DNA from: Pseudomonas phage pPa_SNUABM_DT01
Reading direction: 5' to 3' (one strand)
DNA: 64,000 nt
Sequence record: MW735835.1
Shown here: in pieces, positions 16,420-59,794 of the stretch
Layout: every line of letters starts with the position of its first letter
Numbering within the stretch: the stretch's first letter is position 1
Position numbers and translations under genes: made by a program
The notes under the pieces: generated by a model
The model's database searches: none
The model's input: the letters and a program-made list of their open reading frames with translations, nothing else
What the model was told of the DNA's origin: nothing

Positions 16420-16911
16420 TTGTCTATGGATCGAACTCCCCTGGCGCTTTGGGCTAAGCACCTCATAAGGGCCGCCATTGACTACTTCAATGAACGCTCG
16501 ACCAAAGCCTGTCTTATCGTTGACAACACCATTCTCAAGGATGGGGTCCTGGCCGCAATGGCTCAGGAGAACAACAGCAGTGACTTCATTGTCTGTGTCG
16601 CACCGGGTTTCACCACCCAGTTAGATTTCGGAGACGCTGATCTGACCATCAGTGTGAAGTTCCACGATGCTGCCCATTCAATGGTCATCCCGTACCACGC
16701 GATTCGTGCAGTGATTGCTGCCGACAGCGGTGGTGTGCTGACCGAGAACGGCCACATTAACATCATCAGCGTCCCGCCGGTTGTGTACCCGCCTGCGTCC
16801 CGCTACCGTAATGAAGAAGAACTGGACAAGATTGCTCAGCAAGTGGTAGAGGAAGAAGTCCATGCCCAGCCCACGCAGTCTGAGCTTCAGCTAGTTGTAC
16901 GGAGATCATGA
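16420..16911 (+). CDS. SspB-like protein, second paralog (163 aa)
   Basis: FIVCVAPGFTTQLDFGDADLTISVKFHDAAHSMVIPYHAIRAVIAADSGG aligns with the SspB core IVLNIAPRAVGNLELANDEVRFNARFGGIPRQVSVPLAAVLAIYARENGAG. N-terminal PLALWAKHLIRAAIDYF resembles SspB PRRPYLLRAFYEWL. C-terminal LQLVVRRS resembles the XB tail LRVVK. Confidence 0.45.
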   Translation: MSMDRTPLALWAKHLIRAAIDYFNERSTKACLIVDNTILKDGVLAAMAQENNSSDFIVCVAPGFTTQLDFGDADLTISVKFHDAAHSMVIPYHAIRAVIAADSGGVLTENGHINIISVPPVVYPPASRYRNEEELDKIAQQVVEEEVHAQPTQSELQLVVRRS

Positions 16912-25386: not shown

Positions 25387-25884
25387 ATGGACCGTGAGTT
25401 TCTTGCTGAAATCGATCCTATCATCGCACAGATCAAGTCCGATGATGCAGGCAACTACGTCTTCCACCCGACCGAGAAGTCGTACGCCCTGATCCTGATC
25501 GACCGTACCATCGACATCTACGCTCGCATCCAGCACACCGGCCTGCAAGAGGCCATGAAGGACATGTGCGGCGTATTCGACCTCGTGTACGAGCCGCCGC
25601 AGGGCTGGAAGCTGAACGGGGTGTCATCGTTCTCGATCACTCTGATCGGCCAACGTGTCGACGTGTCGCTCGAGTTCTCCCGACACAACCCTGAAGACTC
25701 GAGCGTCATCGAGAAGGACCGGAAGGACTACGTGATCGAGCTGGCGAACTTCGCCGAGCGTGTCTACCTGTGTCGTATCCTCAGTGGCATCAATGTCAAC
25801 ATGCCTGTACACCGTAACCGTCAGCTGGACTTCGTGTTCACGTACGACGGTAAGGAACTGGCTATCAGTAAGCCGGGGGAGTGA
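25387..25884 (+). CDS. hypothetical protein (165 aa)
   Basis: ORF between the CCA and HD genes. Overlaps the next gene by 4 nt. Confidence 0.45.
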   Translation: MDREFLAEIDPIIAQIKSDDAGNYVFHPTEKSYALILIDRTIDIYARIQHTGLQEAMKDMCGVFDLVYEPPQGWKLNGVSSFSITLIGQRVDVSLEFSRHNPEDSSVIEKDRKDYVIELANFAERVYLCRILSGINVNMPVHRNRQLDFVFTYDGKELAISKPGE

Positions 25885-26525
25885 TGAACCACTTTCTTAC
25901 TCGTCTGGAAGGTAAGCTGCTGGTAGTCCTTGAGACGAATCCCAGTGCTAACCTTCCATACCACAACAACGAACACATGAAACAGATGTGGGCGCTGGCC
26001 AGGACCATCTGGGAACGTGAGGAGGAAGATGTCGGTCTGGGCGATTCCACTTGGAACTACGTGGTGCTGATGTTCGCCTGCCTGTTCCATGATTGGGATC
26101 ATTCCGGTGGCCACGACTCCGATCACTACAACGTGCTCCGGGCTCGTGAGTTCGTCGAAGAGCTGATCGCCAAGAATGGTTACACCCTCCCGGGGCGTGT
26201 CATCAAGGCGATTGACGATGCGATCGCCGTGACCGAGTTCCCCTTCGTTATCCAGCCGAAGAATCGACTGGAAGCAGTGATTCGCGATGCGGACTCACTG
26301 TATGCCACTCATCGTCGCGACCCTACCGTCATCATTGACGGCTTGCGTCAAGAGATGGAAGTCAAGTTTGGCAATGCGATCTCTGACCAGCAGATGCTGG
26401 ACGGTCATATCGACTTCATGGCCAAGACCACCATGTTCACCAAAACCGCCCACGATATCTGGGCTGCCAACGCGCAGCCGTTCGTGGAAGACCTGAAACG
26501 CTACGTTAAAGAACGAGGTAATTGA
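25881..26525 (+). CDS. HD-domain phosphohydrolase (214 aa)
   Basis: NNEHMKQMW (His) and CLFHDWDHSGG (HD) metal-binding motifs. Confidence 0.6.
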   Translation: MMNHFLTRLEGKLLVVLETNPSANLPYHNNEHMKQMWALARTIWEREEEDVGLGDSTWNYVVLMFACLFHDWDHSGGHDSDHYNVLRAREFVEELIAKNGYTLPGRVIKAIDDAIAVTEFPFVIQPKNRLEAVIRDADSLYATHRRDPTVIIDGLRQEMEVKFGNAISDQQMLDGHIDFMAKTTMFTKTAHDIWAANAQPFVEDLKRYVKERGN

Positions 26526-34386: not shown

Positions 34387-34836
34387 ATGAGCGTCGCTCT
34401 TCCCAAGTTCACTGAACCGCTCGAGGAGATCCACTACCTCAAAGCGTTCTCAAACTTCGACACGCGTCAAATCGGCAAGCGTCAGTACATGATGCTTGAA
34501 GAGTTCTCGTTCGACGACGAAGTCTTCGGCAAGATCACTGTACCGAAAGGCTTCGTTACCAACTACGCCTCCCTGGATGCATTGCGCAACATCGTCCTCT
34601 TCCCGGTCTACGCTCTGCTGGCCGATTACGGGGACATGTCCGCGACCATTCACGACTACCTGTACAGCAAAGGCAGCCGAATCACCGTCAACGGTGAGTT
34701 GGTGCGCCCGACCAAAGAACAGGCAGACGAGATCTTCTACCGCGCCCTGCGCAGTGAAGGCATCGCTCGGTGGCGTGCAGGTATGTTCTTCTACGGCGTG
34801 CATCTGTTTGCAGAAGACGCTTACGAAGAAGACTGA
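34387..34836 (+). CDS. DUF1353-like protein (149 aa)
   Basis: KITVPKGFVTNYASLDALRNIVLFPVY resembles the DUF1353 motif (vP.GF.TD.aSiP). Confidence 0.45.
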   Translation: MSVALPKFTEPLEEIHYLKAFSNFDTRQIGKRQYMMLEEFSFDDEVFGKITVPKGFVTNYASLDALRNIVLFPVYALLADYGDMSATIHDYLYSKGSRITVNGELVRPTKEQADEIFYRALRSEGIARWRAGMFFYGVHLFAEDAYEED

Positions 34837-41156: not shown

Positions 41157-41513
41157 GTGAGCAAATCTGAGGAACCGATTGTCGTCATCAAATGGCTACA
41201 CTCGTCCTCGGGCCGCAGTAAACGCAGCGAGATCGTCAACCAAGGATGCTTCGTGCTCGAGCACGAAGCTACCGGGCGCTTCTATCTGGGCCAGAGCGAC
41301 AACGTCAGCAAAGACGTCGATAAACAACTTTCCCAACTGGCAAACGGCAAGCACCCGAACAAGATCCTGAACGTCCTCTACGAGAAGGACAACGAGATCC
41401 GGGTGTTCGAATATCCACAGAAGGCAAAGAAGAAACGCGTAACCCTCATGCGTGAGCTGATTGAGAAGGCCGGCTACCTTTGCCTAAATCCAAGAGATGT
41501 CCGCAATGTATAA
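41157..41513 (+). CDS. GIY-YIG domain protein (118 aa), GTG start
   Basis: GCFVLEHEATGRFYLGQSDNVSKDVDKQLSQLANGKH matches the GIY-(10 aa)-YIG...R...H core. Confidence 0.5.
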   Translation: MSKSEEPIVVIKWLHSSSGRSKRSEIVNQGCFVLEHEATGRFYLGQSDNVSKDVDKQLSQLANGKHPNKILNVLYEKDNEIRVFEYPQKAKKKRVTLMRELIEKAGYLCLNPRDVRNV

Positions 41514-42012
41514 AGACCTGAAGCTTCCCAAGCTGGTGCAGCAGATTCTCCTGGTCACCCGTGACCACATTCTTTCTTCGTCCGCCAAGTGCCACATGTT
41601 GGTGCTGGCGACTCCCAAGTTCCTCAAGGACAATCCGCACCTGAAGCCGAGCGCGTTCGAACACGCGATCTTCGGCCCGGTCGTGGTCCTGAACATCACC
41701 CCGCAAGCGATCGGCCCGATCACCTTGGGTGATGACTTCATCAGCTTCGAAGCCCGCTACAGTGGTGCCCTGCTGACCAACTTCGTGACCATGGGTGACA
41801 TCGTTGGCTTGTATTCGCCAGAAGAAGGCTCGGTCATGATCGACGTCGGTGTGGTCAACCTCATCGGTGATACCGGCATGGGTGACGGCAGTGTCGGCAT
41901 GATTGCTGCCCGTCCGCTGAACAGCTACGAGCCGGCAGAATCCGAAGCCCAGGTCCAAACCCAACCCGTTCAACCGCCGCGTGAGCGCCCTAGCCTGAAG
42001 GTAGTCAAATGA
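41497..42012 (+). CDS. sspB: SspB homolog (ClpX adaptor-like), 171 aa
   Basis: GPVVVLNITPQAIGPITLGDDFISFEARYSGA aligns with E. coli SspB GQIVLNIAPRAVGNLELANDEVRFNARFGG. C-terminus PPRERPSLKVVK aligns with the SspB ClpX-binding tail PPRGGRPALRVVK. Confidence 0.6.
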   Translation: MSAMYKDLKLPKLVQQILLVTRDHILSSSAKCHMLVLATPKFLKDNPHLKPSAFEHAIFGPVVVLNITPQAIGPITLGDDFISFEARYSGALLTNFVTMGDIVGLYSPEEGSVMIDVGVVNLIGDTGMGDGSVGMIAARPLNSYEPAESEAQVQTQPVQPPRERPSLKVVK

Positions 42013-45474: not shown

Positions 45475-45990
45475 ATGGTCAAGGTCTCGCTGATCTACGC
45501 CCAGAACGAGGACGGTGCCATCGGTTTGAAGGGTTCTCACCCGATGCCGTGGCACTTCCCGGAGGACATGCAGCGTTTCGCAGCCCTTACCAAAGGTAAG
45601 GCGATGGTCATGGGGTCGAGTACCTTCGACTCCCTGCCTCGTATCCTTCCGGGTCGCTTCCATTACGTGATGACCCGTAGCCAGGGTCTCCCGCGTCTGG
45701 GGCGCCTCGATCAAGTACAGTTTCTGAACAGCCTCGAGCAGGTGTTCGAGAAAGCCACCCTACACGCTGAAGAACTCTTCGTGATCGGCGGTGGTGACAT
45801 CTTGAACCAAGCCATGCATTGGGCTGACACCATTTATCGCACAGTCGTGCTCAACACTCCGCTTCGGGGTCGTGAGCTGGCCAAGGTCAAGAAGCCGGGT
45901 GAAGACCCGATCTGGAAACGCTTCAAGCTGACCGACACCCAGCGCATCGATGATCGTCTGATCTTCGAGACCTACGAACGCATCATCTAA
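45475..45990 (+). CDS. folA: dihydrofolate reductase
   Basis: VSLIYAQNEDGAIGLKGSHPMPWHFPEDMQRF...KAMVMGSSTFDSLP matches the DHFR N-terminal NADPH/folate-binding motifs. Length 171 aa. Confidence 0.8.
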   Translation: MVKVSLIYAQNEDGAIGLKGSHPMPWHFPEDMQRFAALTKGKAMVMGSSTFDSLPRILPGRFHYVMTRSQGLPRLGRLDQVQFLNSLEQVFEKATLHAEELFVIGGGDILNQAMHWADTIYRTVVLNTPLRGRELAKVKKPGEDPIWKRFKLTDTQRIDDRLIFETYERII

Positions 45991-50581: not shown

Positions 50582-50854
50582 ATGTGCAAGCGTCTCGGTA
50601 AGAAGCACTTCCAGTACGTCGGCACCGATGGCCTGGATAAGTTGAAACAGGACAAGTCCCATTGGAACCCCAAGCGCCGGCTATGGGACACCTATCGGGT
50701 ACAGATCCTGCTTGCCCACACCAACTTGCGGGATGTCTATTGGAATCCCCAGCATAAAACCCCTGCCGGGATCGAGAAGAAGCTCACCCGCGCTAAAGCA
50801 GCTTACTACGCCAAACTCGAGAAGTACTACGAGCGCACTGGCAACGGCAAGTAA
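50582..50854 (+). CDS. hypothetical protein (90 aa)
   Basis: ORF in the array. Confidence 0.4.
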   Translation: MCKRLGKKHFQYVGTDGLDKLKQDKSHWNPKRRLWDTYRVQILLAHTNLRDVYWNPQHKTPAGIEKKLTRAKAAYYAKLEKYYERTGNGK

Positions 50855-50893
50855 CTCATCAAGTATTTTCAGCAAAGAAGAAGGAAGAACGAC

Positions 50894-52765
50894 GTGACTG
50901 AAGCAATCCAATACCACGAAGCCCTGGACGAACTGCGCGCAGCCTCCGAGGCTCTCCTGAAAGATGGCGCCGGTGTCATCTTCACCACCCAGTGCCGTAA
51001 GAAGCTGGGCGAACAATATCTGCGCGCGATGGCCAACGCGGCCAAAGAGCTGAACATGGACGTCAACGAGGTGGTCACTCACTTCCGTTGCTCCACCTGC
51101 TCCCGCTTCATGGCCCGTGTGGGTCACCTGGTGATCTCCAACCCGGAAAACCCCTTCGCCGTTCGTTCTGTGTTCTGGAACCCGGCAGTCGTCACCGACC
51201 CGCTGATGAAACTGGTCGTGGCCGAGATGAAGCGTTACGTCGAGAGCGCTCGTATCCAGAACGTCTACAACGTGGACGGCCCGTACAAGCAGTACACCGA
51301 GGTGACCAACCTGGGCGGTAAAGAGTTCCGCCACTACTTCATCCCGCAGGCCGTGCTGACCCACCGCGTCCCGGTGCTGAACAACCCGATCAGCATCGCC
51401 GACTTCTCCAAGAAGTTCGACCAGGTCGCAGCCCTGATCCGTTTCACCGGTGAAGTGTCGCTGGACACCGTGATGTACGTCGACGGCCTGTTCCAGGCGC
51501 GCATGATCGAACACGTCGGCGCGTCCGAGAAGACCATGGGTGATCTGAAGGCCCTGTTGGCCAGCCTGCAAGTGGCCAAGTCCACCTCGGACTACGGCCT
51601 GGCTCAGGGTGACTACAACAAGGAAACCATTCTGGTCAACACCATCTGGATGGCAGCCCTGCGCAACATGAACATGCTGTCGATCCGTGGTTCGATCCTC
51701 GGCAAGCTGCTGGCCTTCACCCACGATGCCCTGGCCAAGGGCGCTCGTGAAGCGCAACTGGACGGCATCAAGAAGTTCTGGGCCACCCAGACCGACGGCC
51801 TGCACTACCAGCGCACCACCCGTGAGGCTAGCGAGTCGCAGCTCTCCAAGACCGCTCGTTTCCTGGAAGAAGGCGGCTGGAACGAGTCGCTGAAGCAGGT
51901 CGAAGCGGCCGAACTGGACCTGCCGGTACTCTGGCAAGCCAAGGAAGCCTGGACGTTCGAAGAAGGCCACAAAGCCATCTCCAACGACTTCGCTGCCTTC
52001 GCGGCCAAGAAGGGCGTCGAGCTGAACGATCCGACTCAACCGAAACCCATCGACCTCGGCTACTTCATCAACGAAGTCCTGCCGTTTGTCGAATCCATGG
52101 GCTTCGTGGCTACCGGCCTGACCTTCATGCCGATCCTGGTGAACCGTATGGCCAACCTGGAAGCCAAGCCGATCTTCGTCTACGACACCCTCGAGAACCG
52201 CGCTCCGTTCATCCCGTGGCGTTACGACCGTAACTACTCGGTGCGTGAGCTGAACCCGCTGGCCAGCCTGACCAAGAACGGCGAGACCGTCCTGCCGGTG
52301 CTGTCGATCACCTCGGATTCCACCATTGGTTACAAGGGCCGTCGTCCTCAGGACAACGACATCTTCTTCCAGTTCGGTGGCATCTCGATGCCGCAAGCGC
52401 CGCGCCCGGCACTCTTCGCCGAGTCCATGGACAAGCAGTTCTACGAGCACCGTCGTGCGATCGAGGACTACTGCCGCAACACCATCGTACCGCGTTCGGA
52501 AACCCAGCAGTCGATCTCGATGGTCTTCGGCCCGCGTCATCCGCAGGACCACTCGAATGTGTTCGTGCTCCTGCACGTGCGTTTCGGTGAAGAAGGCAAG
52601 GCCCGTTTCGGTGCGACCAATGTGACCTACCGCTTCGATGCGCGCGGTTACACCGTCCAGCCGGACCTCAGCAAGTTCGAAGTGATTCGTGACCGGACCA
52701 AGGTCGCCGTCACCGAGCCGACTGAAGCGCCGAAAGTGCCCACGGCAGAAGTCCGCGCACTGTAA
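50894..52765 (+). CDS. hypothetical large protein (623 aa), GTG start
   Basis: aaggaag RBS. Long ORF. Terminator 52773-52798. Confidence 0.6.
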   Translation: MTEAIQYHEALDELRAASEALLKDGAGVIFTTQCRKKLGEQYLRAMANAAKELNMDVNEVVTHFRCSTCSRFMARVGHLVISNPENPFAVRSVFWNPAVVTDPLMKLVVAEMKRYVESARIQNVYNVDGPYKQYTEVTNLGGKEFRHYFIPQAVLTHRVPVLNNPISIADFSKKFDQVAALIRFTGEVSLDTVMYVDGLFQARMIEHVGASEKTMGDLKALLASLQVAKSTSDYGLAQGDYNKETILVNTIWMAALRNMNMLSIRGSILGKLLAFTHDALAKGAREAQLDGIKKFWATQTDGLHYQRTTREASESQLSKTARFLEEGGWNESLKQVEAAELDLPVLWQAKEAWTFEEGHKAISNDFAAFAAKKGVELNDPTQPKPIDLGYFINEVLPFVESMGFVATGLTFMPILVNRMANLEAKPIFVYDTLENRAPFIPWRYDRNYSVRELNPLASLTKNGETVLPVLSITSDSTIGYKGRRPQDNDIFFQFGGISMPQAPRPALFAESMDKQFYEHRRAIEDYCRNTIVPRSETQQSISMVFGPRHPQDHSNVFVLLHVRFGEEGKARFGATNVTYRFDARGYTVQPDLSKFEVIRDRTKVAVTEPTEAPKVPTAEVRAL

Positions 52766-52772
52766 GTCCCTT

Positions 52773-52798
52773 GGGGGTGGACCTTCCACCCCCTTTCC
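52773..52798 (+). terminator. hairpin GGGGGTGG-ACCTT-CCACCCCC + TTTCC
   Basis: After the stop of 50894-52765. Confidence 0.5.
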
Positions 52799-52810
52799 AT
52801 TCAAGATTCA

Positions 52811-52856: not shown

Positions 52857-53984
52857 GTGCTCAAGCCCACCCCGCTCGTACGTACCAAGCGCGATGAAAT
52901 GACCTTCGGCATCCTGCCGGAATACGTTCCCCAGGACCTGGTCGGCAACATGAAAGGCGATGCTCGTCTGTACAGCTCCGACGAGATCTACAACCTGATG
53001 ATGAAGATGGACGAAGGCTTCGTCGGCATGCGTCGTTCGGTCATCGACAAGACCGAAGCTGTACGTCAGCTGATCCTCTACGCCCTGGCCACCAAGCTGA
53101 TCGGCGGCGTGCTGCACTACGCTGTGTACCAGCGTGCTGCTGGCGCTGAAGCCCAGCTGAAAGACGGCTTCTCCATCGGCTTCGGCGGTCACGTCGAGAA
53201 GAAGGACCTGTGCAGCCACGTCTCGCTGGACGAACACGGCAACGAAGTGGAAGTGGAAGAAGTCCCGTCCTCCTTCTACTCCACCATGCGCTCCGGCATC
53301 CGTGAGCTGCAAGAAGAAGTGCTCTTCTACCACCCGAGCGACGTTGAGCGTCCGTTCACCCAGGAAGAGATCCTCAACCACATCGGCGCTGGCTTCGGCT
53401 ACCGTCAGTTCGCGCTGGTGGAAGTGGAGAAGCTCTCCGAAGAACAGCAAGTCGCTTCCAAGTACAACCACGCCCACTTCGCCGTCATCGACGCCGATAT
53501 CCCGGGTGCTGGCGCTCTAGTCGTCGAGAAGGACGTGTTCTTCGCCGGTGACGCATTCCGCGAACTGTTCCAGCAAGAACCGATCCGTCGTGTGCAGGGC
53601 GCCCAACTGGGCAGCAACGTCGTACCGTTCGCCTTCATCAGCGACCGTGACGTCGAAGGCAAGCCGGGCTTCGTCGGTAACACCCACCTGGGTCTGGCAG
53701 CCATCCTGCGCGTTGAAGGCGACATCTCCTTCAAGGTGCTGGAAGAGAAGTACACCACCATTGGTTGGAAGACCAAGGAAGAACTCCTCGAACTGCGCTC
53801 GCGCTGCGAACCGTGGACCCAGTACCTGCTGGAGCACATCGACGCCATCGAACTGATCGCGCGCAACGAGTGCTTCACCCAGCCGCCGCAAATGCAGGCT
53901 GCGCCGACCGTGGAAGAGCTGGCTGCCAAGCAAGCTGAAATCCCGGCCGAAGAAGGCCTGGTGGGCGACGAAACCGTCCACTAA
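52857..53984 (+). CDS. hypothetical protein (375 aa), GTG start
   Basis: aggag RBS 8 nt before the GTG. Preceded by dyad motif 52811-52834. Hairpin at 53996-54021. Confidence 0.5.
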   Translation: MLKPTPLVRTKRDEMTFGILPEYVPQDLVGNMKGDARLYSSDEIYNLMMKMDEGFVGMRRSVIDKTEAVRQLILYALATKLIGGVLHYAVYQRAAGAEAQLKDGFSIGFGGHVEKKDLCSHVSLDEHGNEVEVEEVPSSFYSTMRSGIRELQEEVLFYHPSDVERPFTQEEILNHIGAGFGYRQFALVEVEKLSEEQQVASKYNHAHFAVIDADIPGAGALVVEKDVFFAGDAFRELFQQEPIRRVQGAQLGSNVVPFAFISDRDVEGKPGFVGNTHLGLAAILRVEGDISFKVLEEKYTTIGWKTKEELLELRSRCEPWTQYLLEHIDAIELIARNECFTQPPQMQAAPTVEELAAKQAEIPAEEGLVGDETVH

Positions 53985-54062
53985 GCAGTAACAAAGAGGT
54001 GAGGGGTCCGCCCTCACCTCTCTGCCGTCTCGCACATTCACCTGATCTATCAAGGAATCATC

Positions 54063-54992
54063 ATGTCTGACAAGAAACCCGCTACTGTTTTCATTGTTCA
54101 TCGCAACGACGCAGTCCTCCCTGACGAGGTGCGTAAGAATTACAACATCTTTGAGATGTCTGAGAAGTGGAGCCTTTCTGCGCTGACGCCGGAGAACTTC
54201 GCGCTCATCAATCCCGAAGACAAGGTCGTTGGTGTCGGTTACACCAAAGACGCCGAAGATGCATTCGGGTTCATCGACCCCGATTACGAGAAACTGTCGA
54301 TGGACGCTGCCAAGCGTTTCTACGCTCGGCCCACTGTTGCCCATTTCTTGGGTCTGCTTCTGGGTTGGTCGATGGTCAACGAAGAGCTGGAGTCTTACGA
54401 CGACGGTGATGGTGCCTCCTGGACCCGTGTCGATGACGAATGCTGGTACGGCGATATCGACTCTGTGATCCTGAACCTCGTCATGCCGAAGGATGGCGGC
54501 GGTGCCTGTGGCTGCGGTAGCAACTACGCCGCTGTGTTGTCGCTGGACAAGTTCCTGCGCACCCAGATGAACCACCCGTTCATCTCCAAGGATGAAGATG
54601 ACATCCGCAAGGGTCATCTCGAAGACACCGTTTATCGTGAAGACCTGCTCGGCCACGCCTTCTGGTTCATTGCCTACGTCATGGACGCGGCGGGGATGAC
54701 CGAACACGGCTCCGGCATTCGTCATGGCTGGCTGCAACTCAAAGGCGTCCTGTTGGCGCTGTTGATCGGCGAATCTATCCGGATGAGCACCTCTCAGGAT
54801 GAGGAAGAGCCGGTCGACCAAGAAGTGCATGACGAATTCAACCCGACTAAAGAAAAGGCCATGGAAGCTGCCATCCATCTGGATAAAGACCTTCAGATGT
54901 TGATGGCTGGAACCTGGGTACCCGATCGCCATTCCTGCGAAGCAGCACTGGATAACGTCGGGGTCGTCCGTCGGTTCATCGAATCCAAGTAA
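54063..54992 (+). CDS. hypothetical protein (309 aa)
   Basis: ORF with aaggaatcatcATG. Confidence 0.5.
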   Translation: MSDKKPATVFIVHRNDAVLPDEVRKNYNIFEMSEKWSLSALTPENFALINPEDKVVGVGYTKDAEDAFGFIDPDYEKLSMDAAKRFYARPTVAHFLGLLLGWSMVNEELESYDDGDGASWTRVDDECWYGDIDSVILNLVMPKDGGGACGCGSNYAAVLSLDKFLRTQMNHPFISKDEDDIRKGHLEDTVYREDLLGHAFWFIAYVMDAAGMTEHGSGIRHGWLQLKGVLLALLIGESIRMSTSQDEEEPVDQEVHDEFNPTKEKAMEAAIHLDKDLQMLMAGTWVPDRHSCEAALDNVGVVRRFIESK

Positions 54993-55033
54993 CTCGCACA
55001 TCCACCTCCGAACATTCATCAAGGAATTTCACC

Positions 55034-56263
55034 ATGCCTGCACAAGTCAACATCAACAACTACGACAACCACCTCGTGATCACCGCCACCGACCAGAGCA
55101 ATCTGGTGGATCATGTCCCGGCGATGGTCTACAAGGCAGTGTTGCGTCCGTACGGCATCGTGCTGATCAAGGACCGTCCGACCTTCACCCTTCCGCAACT
55201 GCGCTTCGGTCGCCATAAGCGTTTCTTCACCCAGATCAGTAACAGCTATGACCGCGATGGCCGTGGCACTGGCGTGCTGTTGGCTGGTGAAAAGGGCACC
55301 GGTAAGTCGCTGATGGCGGAAGAACTGGGCGCCTGGATGATCAAGCAGGACCTGCCGGTGATCATGGTCAGCGAACCCATGTCGGCTGAAGACCTGTCGG
55401 TCGTCATTAAGGCTGTCGGGCCGTGCATGGTGCTCTTCGACGAGTTCGGTAAGGTGTATCACGATGTCCACGAGCGTGAACGCCTGCTGACCCTGTTCTC
55501 GGACACCTCGTTCGTCGGTGTGATGTTCGTCATCACGGGCAACGCTGCCAGTGAGTTCTCCGAGTTCCTGGTTCACCGCCCTCAGCGGTTCCTCTACTGC
55601 ATCAACTACCACAGTGGTGTGGACGAGGAGACCATGGAAGACATCCTTACCACCATGCAGGTCAAGCCGGAGATGCATGAGCTGTTCCGCGAGTACCGGG
55701 TCGATAGCCGTACCCTGAACATCGACTCGCTCATGTGCGTCGTGCGTCAGTCGGCGGACTGCAAGACCCCGGAGGAGCTTGTAGAGCGTTGCGAGATCCT
55801 CAACGTACCGGAACTTCCTAAGAAGCGCTGGTACATCAAGGATGTCGTTCAGCTCAGCACGGACACCGAGGAAGTCAAGCCGTTTGGCTGGGACTTCAAC
55901 GCGAACCGTGTAGGCTTCATCGGCCTGATCGAAGGACGTGTGATGGAAGCCCGCCATATTCGCGATCCAGAGGGCCGTCGTACGTCTGTCGAGTACCAAG
56001 TCTCTGCTGACAACAGCGACGTCAAGATCGTCGTAGAAGGCATGCGCACTTTCGAGGTAACCCTCACTTACGGTTACATGCGCCCATGCTTTGATGCTGT
56101 GAAGCATGGTGAGCCGCACCCTGAGGCGGTTCTTACCAGAGAAAACAACCTCATGGTCCCTTCACGGGCAGGTGGTTTTGGTACGTTCCATTCCGAGGCC
56201 ACCGTGGATAGCGGCTCGCCGCGTGAACCGTGGCGAGCCGTTCAACCGGCAGGCCGTCATTAA
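55034..56263 (+). CDS. AAA+ ATPase (409 aa)
   Basis: Walker A GVLLAGEKGTGKSL. Walker B CMVLFDEFG. Sensor-1-like FVITGN. Confidence 0.65.
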   Translation: MPAQVNINNYDNHLVITATDQSNLVDHVPAMVYKAVLRPYGIVLIKDRPTFTLPQLRFGRHKRFFTQISNSYDRDGRGTGVLLAGEKGTGKSLMAEELGAWMIKQDLPVIMVSEPMSAEDLSVVIKAVGPCMVLFDEFGKVYHDVHERERLLTLFSDTSFVGVMFVITGNAASEFSEFLVHRPQRFLYCINYHSGVDEETMEDILTTMQVKPEMHELFREYRVDSRTLNIDSLMCVVRQSADCKTPEELVERCEILNVPELPKKRWYIKDVVQLSTDTEEVKPFGWDFNANRVGFIGLIEGRVMEARHIRDPEGRRTSVEYQVSADNSDVKIVVEGMRTFEVTLTYGYMRPCFDAVKHGEPHPEAVLTRENNLMVPSRAGGFGTFHSEATVDSGSPREPWRAVQPAGRH

Positions 56264-56302
56264 TCCCTGTTCCACCCAACCCAAGGACTAAGGAGTCCAG
56301 CA

Positions 56303-56620
56303 ATGCAAGTGAAAAACCTGAGCAACATCGCTGAAGCCCTGAAAGCCGTCTCCAAAGAAGGCAAGGTCACGTTGGTCATCGACACCCTGAAGAAGCGCGA
56401 CAGCGCAGCTGTGGGCAAGGTCGGTGACGTGTACTTCCAGCTGTCCTTCGACTCGTTGGCTGACGGTATCAAAGCTGGTCGTTCCGTGGAACTGAACGTG
56501 GAAACCGGCGAGGCTGTACTGCTCGACGTTCCTGTCCAGCCAGTGACCAAGGCCGTAGAGCCTACTTCTCGTCCTGGCCGCTCCTGCTCCTCCCGCATCA
56601 GCAACAAGGACATGATGTAA
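56303..56620 (+). CDS. hypothetical protein (105 aa)
   Basis: ORF with aaggagtccagcaATG. Terminator at 56635-56665. Confidence 0.45.
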   Translation: MQVKNLSNIAEALKAVSKEGKVTLVIDTLKKRDSAAVGKVGDVYFQLSFDSLADGIKAGRSVELNVETGEAVLLDVPVQPVTKAVEPTSRPGRSCSSRISNKDMM

Positions 56621-56634
56621 CCACCCCGTTCAGA

Positions 56635-56665
56635 GAGGAGGGCTTCGGCCCTCTTTCTCTTTTGT
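56635..56665 (+). terminator. intrinsic terminator GAGGAGGGC-TTCG-GCCCTCT + TTCTCTTTTGTTTG
   Basis: Stem + U-rich tail after the stop of 56303-56620. Confidence 0.6.
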
Positions 56666-56678
56666 TTGCGAGGAAAGC

Positions 56679-57209
56679 ATGACCACGATCGTTTATCATC
56701 AAGGCGCCATCTACGCGGATCAGGTCCACGTACGTGCTGGCACACCCTGCACCAGCCATCTGGCTGTTAAAATCTTCACCTCTGCCGATAAGCAGTTCGC
56801 CTACGGCGTGAGCGGTCGAGCCATTGCCCCGAAGGAGCGCGAATCTCTCGAACAGATTCTTCGCAAGGGCCTAGAGAAGCTTCTTGTAGCGAACATGGGC
56901 GATTCTATCATGACTCCCATGATCTTCTCTGAAGAGGAAATAGAACGTCTCAGCGATTTCGGTGGTTGGGTCATCATGACCAAGACCAGGGCATTCATTT
57001 GGCTGTCGCGGATGATCCGCGAGGCCACAGGAGCAACCATGGGCGCCGGTACCGGTTGCTGGCTGGTGTGCGGAATGATTTACGGCGGCATGAAGCCGGA
57101 GAAAGCCATTCTTAACACAGGTGACTTGGATTGCTGCACTGGTGGCGGTGTGAACAAGATCAGTGCTAAATCCCTGAAACCCTTCGTCATCAAAGGAGAG
57201 TCCAAATGA
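56679..57209 (+). CDS. HslV-like / proteasome-beta-like Ntn-hydrolase (176 aa)
   Basis: N-terminus MTTIVYHQGAIYADQ aligns with HslV [20 protein letters not shown] (catalytic Thr2). KIFTSADKQFAYGVSG aligns with RLYNDKVIAGFAGG. TMGAGTGCWLVCGMIYG aligns with IAIGSGGPYAQAAA. Confidence 0.45.
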   Translation: MTTIVYHQGAIYADQVHVRAGTPCTSHLAVKIFTSADKQFAYGVSGRAIAPKERESLEQILRKGLEKLLVANMGDSIMTPMIFSEEEIERLSDFGGWVIMTKTRAFIWLSRMIREATGATMGAGTGCWLVCGMIYGGMKPEKAILNTGDLDCCTGGGVNKISAKSLKPFVIKGESK

Positions 57210-57787
57210 CCCTCGCAGTCTGGCTCGACGACGAAGTCGGCCTTCAAGCCCAGGCCAACCCGATGGAAGGTGTGTACTTCCGCCTACCGGAAGACAACTT
57301 CGATCGTTGCTTCTCCAAGTATGGTTTCGTCTACTCCCTCAAGGAGTTCGAGATCAACTACCCGGCCGTGGTGGAAAATCGCCTCCCGCCAATCCCACGC
57401 CACATCAACAATGCGTCCAGTCAGCTGGTCTACATGCTGATCGATCATTATGGAGAAGTCTGGCAGATCGACTATTGGTCTGATCGCGAAGGCCGCGTCA
57501 ATGCTCCTCAAATGTCCATCTTCTCCATGCCGGCCGGAAAGGTGAAGACCCTGGTAGCGTGCACGGATGAAGGCGATTTGGAGTTGCTCACTGGTTTCGT
57601 CATGGCCAACCGAAACAAAGACGAAATCAACCAGTTCATCTTCGATAAGAAGCTCGGTCACGGCAAACGCCTTACGTGGCTGAGCAAAAAGGACATCGTC
57701 GAACGTCTCAATAAGGAGTTCCCGCTTGAGAAAGATCCCGGTGAAAGTAATCCCTTCGCCCAAGCCATCGCCACCCCCTCGCCCTAA
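57206..57787 (+). CDS. hypothetical protein (193 aa)
   Basis: ORF overlapping the upstream stop (ATGA). Confidence 0.5.
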   Translation: MTLAVWLDDEVGLQAQANPMEGVYFRLPEDNFDRCFSKYGFVYSLKEFEINYPAVVENRLPPIPRHINNASSQLVYMLIDHYGEVWQIDYWSDREGRVNAPQMSIFSMPAGKVKTLVACTDEGDLELLTGFVMANRNKDEINQFIFDKKLGHGKRLTWLSKKDIVERLNKEFPLEKDPGESNPFAQAIATPSP

Positions 57788-59143: not shown

Positions 59144-59794
59144 ATGACCATTAGAACGCTGCTGTGCGCTGGCGCACAGACCAATAAAACCTACTTGCCA
59201 GGACCCCAGAACCTCGCGTTTGGCACAATGGAAGACCGTGGGTATTTCGGCGAGGTGAGTAGTGCTGACCTCGCTACCAGCGCCGAGCTGGCCACTTTGG
59301 TTGATTTGGATTCGATCGGCACGATAATGAATCCGGCAGCCAGCTGGTTGAAATTCGCTCACAAAGGCAAGGTCCTCTATATTGCCAAACAGCCCCTGCG
59401 CCGGGGCTTGACGATCGCTCAGTATAGCGCCCGTGGTCTGATATATGGTCGTGATGTCACCATTAAAGACATTCCGTTTAAGGTCAGGTTCATGACCGGG
59501 GGTGACGCCGATCCCGCTACCGTCGGCGGTGGTGAATGGAACGACCTCATGTACCCGGTATGTTCAGCCAGGCCAGCGGGACAACCAATATGGGCCAACT
59601 TCTCCGAAGCTACCCTCATGGTCAATAACGCTGATGTGGGCCGGGCTACTTTCTGTCAAGAATTACGATCAGGGTCTACATTCCACATCTACCGTGGTTA
59701 CACGTCACTGCAAACTTTTGCAGCAGCAGTAGCTAACTCCGACATGAACAACTACGGTTGGCGTCCTGTCCTTGAGTACACCGGTTCTCTCTGA
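59144..59794 (+). CDS. hypothetical protein (216 aa)
   Basis: aaggataaacaccATG. Terminator at 59800-59831. Confidence 0.5.
   Translation: MTIRTLLCAGAQTNKTYLPGPQNLAFGTMEDRGYFGEVSSADLATSAELATLVDLDSIGTIMNPAASWLKFAHKGKVLYIAKQPLRRGLTIAQYSARGLIYGRDVTIKDIPFKVRFMTGGDADPATVGGGEWNDLMYPVCSARPAGQPIWANFSEATLMVNNADVGRATFCQELRSGSTFHIYRGYTSLQTFAAAVANSDMNNYGWRPVLEYTGSL

Follow-up and report, generated by a model that had tools for sequence, protein, structure and literature searches.

A proteasome-beta/HslV-like threonine peptidase and its translationally coupled, probable inactive partner in a conserved cassette of jumbo phages related to Pseudomonas phage pPa_SNUABM_DT01

The stretch of 64,000 nucleotides of Pseudomonas phage pPa_SNUABM_DT01 analyzed here (MW735835.1; the whole of it is called the window) encodes a 176-aa protein that is a divergent N-terminal nucleophile (Ntn) hydrolase of the proteasome-beta/HslV kind (MEROPS T1-type). 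Its gene belongs to a conserved three-gene cassette, in which it stands between the genes for a 105-aa protein and a 193-aa protein, the latter probably an inactive Ntn-fold paralog and partner subunit. The explanation that we favor, and consider reasonably probable, is that a propeptide-less threonine peptidase and its dead paralog form a compartmental hetero-oligomer, and that the AAA ATPase encoded upstream is a lineage-specific neighbor. An initial annotation of the region, made from the DNA letters, had joined this ATPase and the peptidase into one possible compartmental protease. Both open reading frames (ORFs) are confirmed on the plus strand (Table 1).

A divergent proteasome-type Ntn hydrolase

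The protease ORF is preceded by a GAGGA ribosome-binding site and starts with MTTIVYHQG (sequence MTTIVYHQGAIYADQ...). The protein matches PHROG 1040, a phage family that carries the name "peptidase HslV family", with an E-value of 9.7e-15. A phmmer search of the PDB sequences with the single protein gave no matches, and only the family profile reached HslV, in the form of the solved chains 3ty6, 4hnz, 2z3a and 1yyf (E about 1e-5, best 1.3e-5). The initial annotation had already proposed an alignment with HslV over roughly the first 70 residues and the GSGG loop. This alignment is more than chance, and the profile puts both Lys33 and the GSGG loop of HslV in register. The actual letters of the loop in the phage protein, however, are GAGTGC, and the family pattern is G-x-G-[TS]-G.

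Structure prediction speaks for the same assignment. The AlphaFold2 model, built on a 106-sequence alignment, has a pLDDT of 96.1 and a pTM of 0.91, and shows the four-layer alpha-beta-beta-alpha arrangement of Ntn hydrolases. Foldseek returned 245 matches at E<=1e-3 for this model. The top match in the PDB is the 20S proteasome subunit beta5, and HslV (3ty6, 1e94, 1m4y) and the bacterial proteasome homolog BPH (5ovs) are also found, with probability 1.00 and TM-scores of about 0.6. Pfam, by contrast, has no match for the 176-aa protein. It stays below the gathering threshold of PF00227 (Proteasome), and among the 106 family members just one is matched (E 0.0037). The family is recognized only through PHROG 1040, PHROG 11389 (a further catalogued phage HslV family) and comparisons of profiles and structures.

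An exhaustive profile search collected 119 representative clusters, nearly all of which align residue 1 to residue 1. Conservation was counted in the 106-sequence family alignment. Position 2 is threonine in 82 sequences and serine in the other 24, which supports the earlier suggestion of a catalytic threonine after Met1. Of the two results that the initial annotation had named as refuting its proposal, a fold other than Ntn and an N-terminal threonine that varies among homologs, neither is observed. This residue follows Met1 immediately in 102 of the 106, and the other four have a short N-terminal extension. D14, K31 and G124, which stand for Asp17, Lys33 and the glycine of the GSGG loop, are conserved without exception, G46 in 95%, T/S125 in 86%, T/S154 in 75% and D151 in 72% of the sequences. 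The candidate catalytic set of the phage protein thus consists of Thr2, Asp14, Lys31, Gly46, Thr125, Asp151 and Thr154, equivalent in position to Thr1, Asp17, Lys33, Gly47, Ser129, Asp166 and Ser169 of proteasome beta subunits, where D151 and T154 are assigned to Asp166 and Ser169 by position only. Since more than 100 jumbo-phage sequence clusters keep the full set, selection appears to maintain an active enzyme, and we predict from these residues that the phage protease very probably is one.

Because the threonine or serine lies directly after Met1, propeptide processing is unnecessary. Methionine aminopeptidases prefer small second residues. The host enzyme would remove Met1 and so expose Thr2 as the N-terminal nucleophile, which would be backed by Asp14 and Lys31 together with Gly46, Thr125, Asp151 and Thr154.

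As far as sampled, the protease family is restricted to jumbo phages. Searches of an annotated phage collection by megablast and tblastn, with the region and with the 176-aa protein, returned nothing useful, and the comparative work therefore relied on metagenomic and IMG/VR relatives. The loci compared, some of them from named phages, are labeled L001-L026 and P0153. Searches with four distant single members recovered no viral contigs. Plasmids and genome contigs were also scanned and no relative was seen, so that there is no evidence for a cellular origin of close relatives.

The three-gene cassette and its hairpin

At all loci of the pPa_SNUABM_DT01-like clades, L014 and the independent contigs L020 and L021 among them, the protease gene stands between genes for orthologs of the 105-aa and the 193-aa protein. 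The conserved unit is the cassette 105-aa/protease/193-aa. In the window and in L003, L004 and L007-L010, the stop codon of the protease gene and the start codon of the 193-aa gene overlap by 4 nt (ATGA or GTGA). The same 4-nt overlap joins the protease to an ORF of 172-183 aa in Erwinia phage Ea35-70 and Ralstonia phage RSF1, and the overlap measures 1 nt in L014 and 26 nt in Serratia phage PCH45. This is the classic arrangement for translational coupling, and it implies a fixed stoichiometry of protease and 193-aa protein.

The structure prediction for the 193-aa protein is of low confidence, because it was built on an alignment of only 5 sequences. Connectase and acylases are among the structural relatives of this model, and the protein has no significant sequence similarity to proteasome alpha subunits. 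We regard it as probably an inactive Ntn-fold paralog that serves as partner subunit of the protease. Made in fixed ratio, the two proteins would co-assemble into a self-compartmentalizing hetero-oligomer, which would degrade proteins of the host or of the phage in the course of infection.

Many chemistries are possible with the Ntn fold, and the relatives of the 193-aa model, as well as the position of the protease family outside PF00227, could be taken to point to an enzyme that is not a self-compartmentalizing protease at all, but a specific, Connectase-like ligase or transpeptidase, an amidase, or an enzyme that processes a phage protein in a single turnover. We consider this very improbable. 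The best structure and sequence matches of the 176-aa protein itself are all proteolytic (20S beta5, HslV, BPH), and the equivalents of T1, D17, K33, S129, D166 and S169 that it conserves make up the full proteasome-type set.

The 105-aa protein and its orthologs end in a tail with the motif R-[GKS]-C-[SGAT]-[ST], which lies behind a variable linker rich in proline and lysine (e.g. ...SRPGRSCSSRISNKDMM, ...SSPRKSCSSHAELRESRGGY). Toward the protease, this tail could have a regulatory role or resemble a substrate. We also considered a C-terminal docking peptide shared between the 105-aa protein and the ATPase, and rejected it, as the motifs differ.

A terminator-like hairpin followed by a T-rich run lies between the 105-aa gene and the protease gene. 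The hairpin is not peculiar to the window. In ten of ten loci (the window, L003, L004, L007-L010, L011, L013 and L014), a stable, GC-rich hairpin (-16 to -29 kcal/mol) separates the start of the protease gene from the small ORF that precedes it. The TTCG loop is frequent, a T-run follows in the window and in L007-L010, and the hairpin sequence varies between clades. In the window, the T-run ends about 12 nt upstream of the ribosome-binding site and start of the protease gene. This leaves no room for a promoter, and attenuated read-through is therefore the most likely route to protease expression. We take the hairpin for a putative conserved attenuator or terminator, which would lower expression of the protease pair by limiting read-through transcription into the peptidase gene.

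The neighboring ATPase and other genes of the window

The 409-aa protein encoded upstream of the cassette is a real AAA ATPase, with the Walker A (GEKGTGKS, residues 85-92) and Walker B (VLFDEF) motifs that the initial annotation had pointed out. Its match to PF00004 reaches 24.8 bits against a cutoff of 21.2, and neither AAA_2 nor the I-domain is matched. In the family alignment of 27 sequences, G85, K87, G88, G90 and K91, D136 and E137, the sensor-1 residues T168 and N170, and R182 and R185 of the "NRPGRF" arginine finger are invariant. The family profile matches p97/Cdc48 D2, VAT, NSF, Rix7 and Msp1 (E about 1e-13), but not HslU or ClpX. The "MWFG" of pore loop 1 in p97 D2 falls in an insertion that is missing from the phage profile. 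The window ATPase has S-E-P-M-S at this place, and some distant members retain Y/F-x-G. No docking motif of the HbYX type was found in the family; the C-termini are unconserved across it, and the window ATPase ends in ...QPAGRH. Judging by these sequence features, the protein is a classical-clade AAA ATPase of the p97/Cdc48 kind. It is not homologous to HslU, and its competence as a threading motor is not obvious. Within the clade, a tail "G[IM]GR..SE...[AS]MLS[SGT]KH...", which is not HbYX-like, is conserved in L003, L004, L007-L010, L023 and L024, and the window ATPase has a degenerate version of it (GGFGTFHSE...QPAGRH, 56170-56263, plus strand).

According to the initial annotation, this ATPase lies 400 nt upstream of the peptidase in the same transcriptional unit. 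The corresponding model is a two-component, ATP-dependent protease of the phage in the manner of HslUV or PAN-20S, in which the ATPase would unfold substrates and thread them into the peptidase chamber. The distance is about right (415 nt), but the gap is not intergenic, since it holds the 105-aa gene and the conserved hairpin. The best evidence for a link is that the two genes are always close in the pPa_SNUABM_DT01-like clades: they lie on the same strand, 0.4-1.3 kb apart, in about 11 independent clade loci and in two gene orders. The order ATPase-105-aa-protease-193-aa is found in the window, L007-L010, L014, L022-L024 and P0153. In L003-L006 and L019, the cassette comes first and is followed by two small genes and the ATPase, about 1.3 kb downstream. 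The intact Walker, sensor-1 and arginine finger residues, and the fact that the classical AAA clade includes the proteasomal ATPases, also speak for this model.

Several observations argue against it. In more distant phages, ATPase and protease are uncoupled at 10 loci, and the two genes are thus neither consistently adjacent nor co-inherited. Six of these loci (L001 and L002, from phAPEC8 and Bacillus phage vB_BceM_WH1, and L015-L018) have the ATPase without an HslV-like ORF within 4-8 kb, even though the ATPases of L015 and L016, at 38-44% identity, are nearer to the window ATPase than those of L003 and L004. The other four (L021 and L011-L013, the latter from Ea35-70, PCH45 and RSF1) have the protease cassette without such an ATPase within 8 kb. 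The gap in place of the p97 pore loop, the lack of an HbYX motif or conserved docking C-terminus, and the lack of AAA_2 and I-domain also weigh against a threading motor for this peptidase, as does the hairpin that separates the two genes. We therefore think it unlikely that the ATPase is the unfoldase of the peptidase within one transcription unit. It is better described as a clade-specific neighbor of the cassette, weakly supported as a partner, that may or may not deliver substrates to the protease.

A second recurrent neighbor of the ATPase, which likewise counts against its pairing with the peptidase, is a 623-aa protein of the DUF8224/PHROG 1735 family. It is encoded two or three genes upstream of the ATPase in the window, and in Bacillus phage vB_BceM_WH1 the gene immediately before the ATPase encodes a homolog (L002 1857-3929). 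Because the homologs adjoin in this phage, the ATPase may work with the DUF8224 protein instead of the protease. The ATPase family is large, as PHROG 2376 members occur in 389 phage records, among them rV5/phAPEC8-like phages, Lactococcus phage 949, and Bacillus and Enterococcus phages. The 309-aa ORF that immediately precedes the ATPase gene is shared by the window, L007-L010, L022 and L023, but absent from L014 and P0153. It has no family match and represents an insertion in the block that is specific to some lineages.

A different association is seen in a 42.6-kb metagenomic phage contig (L017 6797-10447), where a Pfam-confirmed SspB gene is followed by two small ORFs and then by two tandem ATPase paralogs of the PHROG 2376 type. 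This hints that the ATPase family may be tied to adaptor-mediated protein remodeling, and the proximity of SspB to the tandem copies favors a proteolysis-related role for the family, which also counts for the ATPase as a motor of the peptidase. In the window itself, two genes had been described as SspB-like and taken, together with the ATPase and the protease, as a sign of extensive hijacking or replacement of host AAA+ proteolysis. Both score below the PF04386 gathering cutoff of 27 bits (Table 1), and a probe with the SspB of L017 matched no window ORF. They are possible remote homologs. As the hijacking proposal relies on these two sub-threshold matches, 15 and 40 kb away, it is speculative.

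The peptidase might also work with an ATPase encoded elsewhere, be it host HslU, another host AAA+ unfoldase or a phage HslU-type protein outside the window, and then act as a replacement or decoy core. Pseudomonas hosts do encode HslUV. This reading is favored by Erwinia phage RAY, in which gp55, gp56 and gp57 (L026 740-2119) are unannotated members of the cassette, with gp56 as the protease and gp57 coupled to it, and in which gp116 (L025 1353-3062), 37 kb away, is a genuine HslU-type ATPase (Pfam AAA_2, E 1.9e-14). RAY gp116 localizes to the phage nucleus and the SspB-like gp039 to the cytoplasm, and the same study does not connect gp116 with gp56 (bioRxiv 10.1101/2023.02.24.529968). Nothing links these two proteins physically or genomically, and a phmmer search with gp116 found no HslU-like ORF in the 64-kb window. 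Moreover, the phage protease is only 9-17% identical to cellular HslV, which makes conservation of the HslU docking pocket doubtful. An ATPase from elsewhere therefore seems rather improbable to us. The products of the genes downstream of gp116, gp117 and gp118, were tested as HslV-like candidates and are not HslV-like.

Beyond the block, the window encodes a dihydrofolate reductase and a few other proteins with recognizable domains (Table 1). Long minus-strand ORFs (for example 50681-52804, 53517-55022, 55019-56119 and 56260-56745; up to 707 aa) were treated as antisense artefacts, because the genes on the plus strand have homologs in many phages and the minus-strand GC3 is lower. They look like a by-product of the GC-rich codon usage, and scans based on ORFs could be misled by them.

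Table 1. Features of the window discussed in the text
Feature	Coordinates	Strand	Basis
HslV/proteasome-beta-type Ntn threonine peptidase, 176 aa, without propeptide	56679-57209	+	Fold model, profile matches, conservation
193-aa protein, putative catalytically dead Ntn-fold paralog/partner subunit	57206-57787	+	ATGA stop/start overlap with protease
105-aa conserved protein	56303-56620	+	Ortholog directly 5' of protease across clade loci
Terminator-like hairpin GAGGAGGGC-TTCG-GCCCTCTTT with T-rich run	56635-56666 (hairpin 56635-56656)	+	Terminator scan
Classical-clade AAA ATPase, 409 aa, PHROG 2376	55034-56263	+	PHROG 2376, E 3e-50; PF00004, E 3e-5
309-aa ORF	54063-54992	+	
DUF8224/PHROG 1735 protein, 623 aa	50894-52765	+	
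Possible remote SspB homolog	16420-16911	+	PF04386, 18.3 bits, E 2.5e-3
Possible remote SspB homolog	41497-42012	+	PF04386, 20.9 bits, E 3.9e-4
Weak HD-domain protein	25881-26525	+	E 6e-4
DUF1353 protein	34387-34836	+	E 1.5e-13
Dihydrofolate reductase	45475-45990	+	PF00186, E 1e-31
Match to virion structural protein PHROGs	59144-59794		E 5e-44 to 1e-19

Relation to known systems and significance

Cellular HslV (ClpQ) is homo-dodecameric. The phage protease resembles it in length (about 175 residues), in the lack of a propeptide, in the threonine (serine in some members) right after Met1, in the equivalents of Asp17, Lys33, the glycine and the GSGG loop, and in the Ntn fold, and HslV chains are its best sequence-profile matches in the PDB. 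It differs in its low identity, the TM-score of about 0.6, a score below the Pfam Proteasome threshold and the fact that it is phage-encoded. Unlike HslV in HslUV, it has no adjacent HslU-type ATPase of the HCLR clade with AAA_2 and I-domain, its neighbor being a classical-clade AAA protein, and its gene is translationally coupled to that of a second subunit, probably a dead Ntn-fold protein.

The likeness to the 20S proteasome lies in the top Foldseek match to beta5, in the full beta-type catalytic set and in the neighboring ATPase, whose clade, broadly taken, also includes PAN and Cdc48/VAT. Should the 193-aa protein prove to be an Ntn-fold partner without activity, the pairing of an active with an inactive subunit would parallel the alpha/beta architecture of archaeal and actinobacterial proteasomes. 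In contrast to the 20S particle, the phage protease has no propeptide, its partner is not alpha-like in sequence and the ATPase lacks HbYX. Anbu and BPH are bacterial proteasome homologs that form cellular homo-oligomers, have their own operon contexts and are not known to have ATPase partners. The phage family differs from them by its coupled second subunit.

The protease gene itself has been annotated before, and the basic finding is not new. The 176-aa protein is 100% identical to the "putative protease" of pPa_SNUABM_DT01 at NCBI, and the phage genes catalogued as HslV family (PHROG 1040 and 11389, pSal-SNUABM-04 and pPa_SNUABM_DT01) are of the same kind, known from annotation-level calls only. 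In the Salmonella jumbo phage pSal-SNUABM-04, ORFs 1 and 116 are labeled "HslV protease", and HslU was not detected (PMC7823757). The genome paper of pPa_SNUABM_DT01 mentions neither protease nor HslV nor proteasome, and ATPase only with regard to SbcC (PMC8541153). Our literature searches turned up no work on the function of a proteasome-like protease from any phage, nor any account of the conserved catalytic residues, the cassette of three genes, its coupled and probably dead paralog or the conserved hairpin. What is added here is evidence that selection acts on the catalytic machinery throughout a large family from jumbo phages, together with the definition of the cassette and its hairpin and the probable dead-paralog partner. 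Pfam, NCBIfam and PADLOC have no match for the protease or for the 105-aa, 193-aa and 309-aa proteins, and a defense or anti-defense label is therefore unsupported.

A broader model can be proposed tentatively, although we regard it as doubtful in its full extent. Several jumbo-phage lineages may encode a minimal two-subunit proteasome-like particle, composed of an active HslV/beta-like subunit and a coupled, dead alpha-like or spacer subunit, and each lineage may recruit a different unfoldase: a classical AAA protein without pore loop in pPa_SNUABM_DT01-like phages, and a true HslU-type protein (RAY gp116) in Agricanvirus. Such a particle would be a virus-encoded compartmental protease, perhaps removing host defense or regulatory proteins.

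Proteasome-type proteases are textbook cellular machines, and viral versions exist in the searched literature as annotation labels only. If the 193-aa protein is indeed a dead paralog, phages would have independently reached an active-plus-inactive architecture within about 370 coding residues, which would provide a compact model for the origin of hetero-oligomeric proteasomes. It would also suggest the targeted proteolysis of host or defense proteins as a takeover strategy of jumbo phages.

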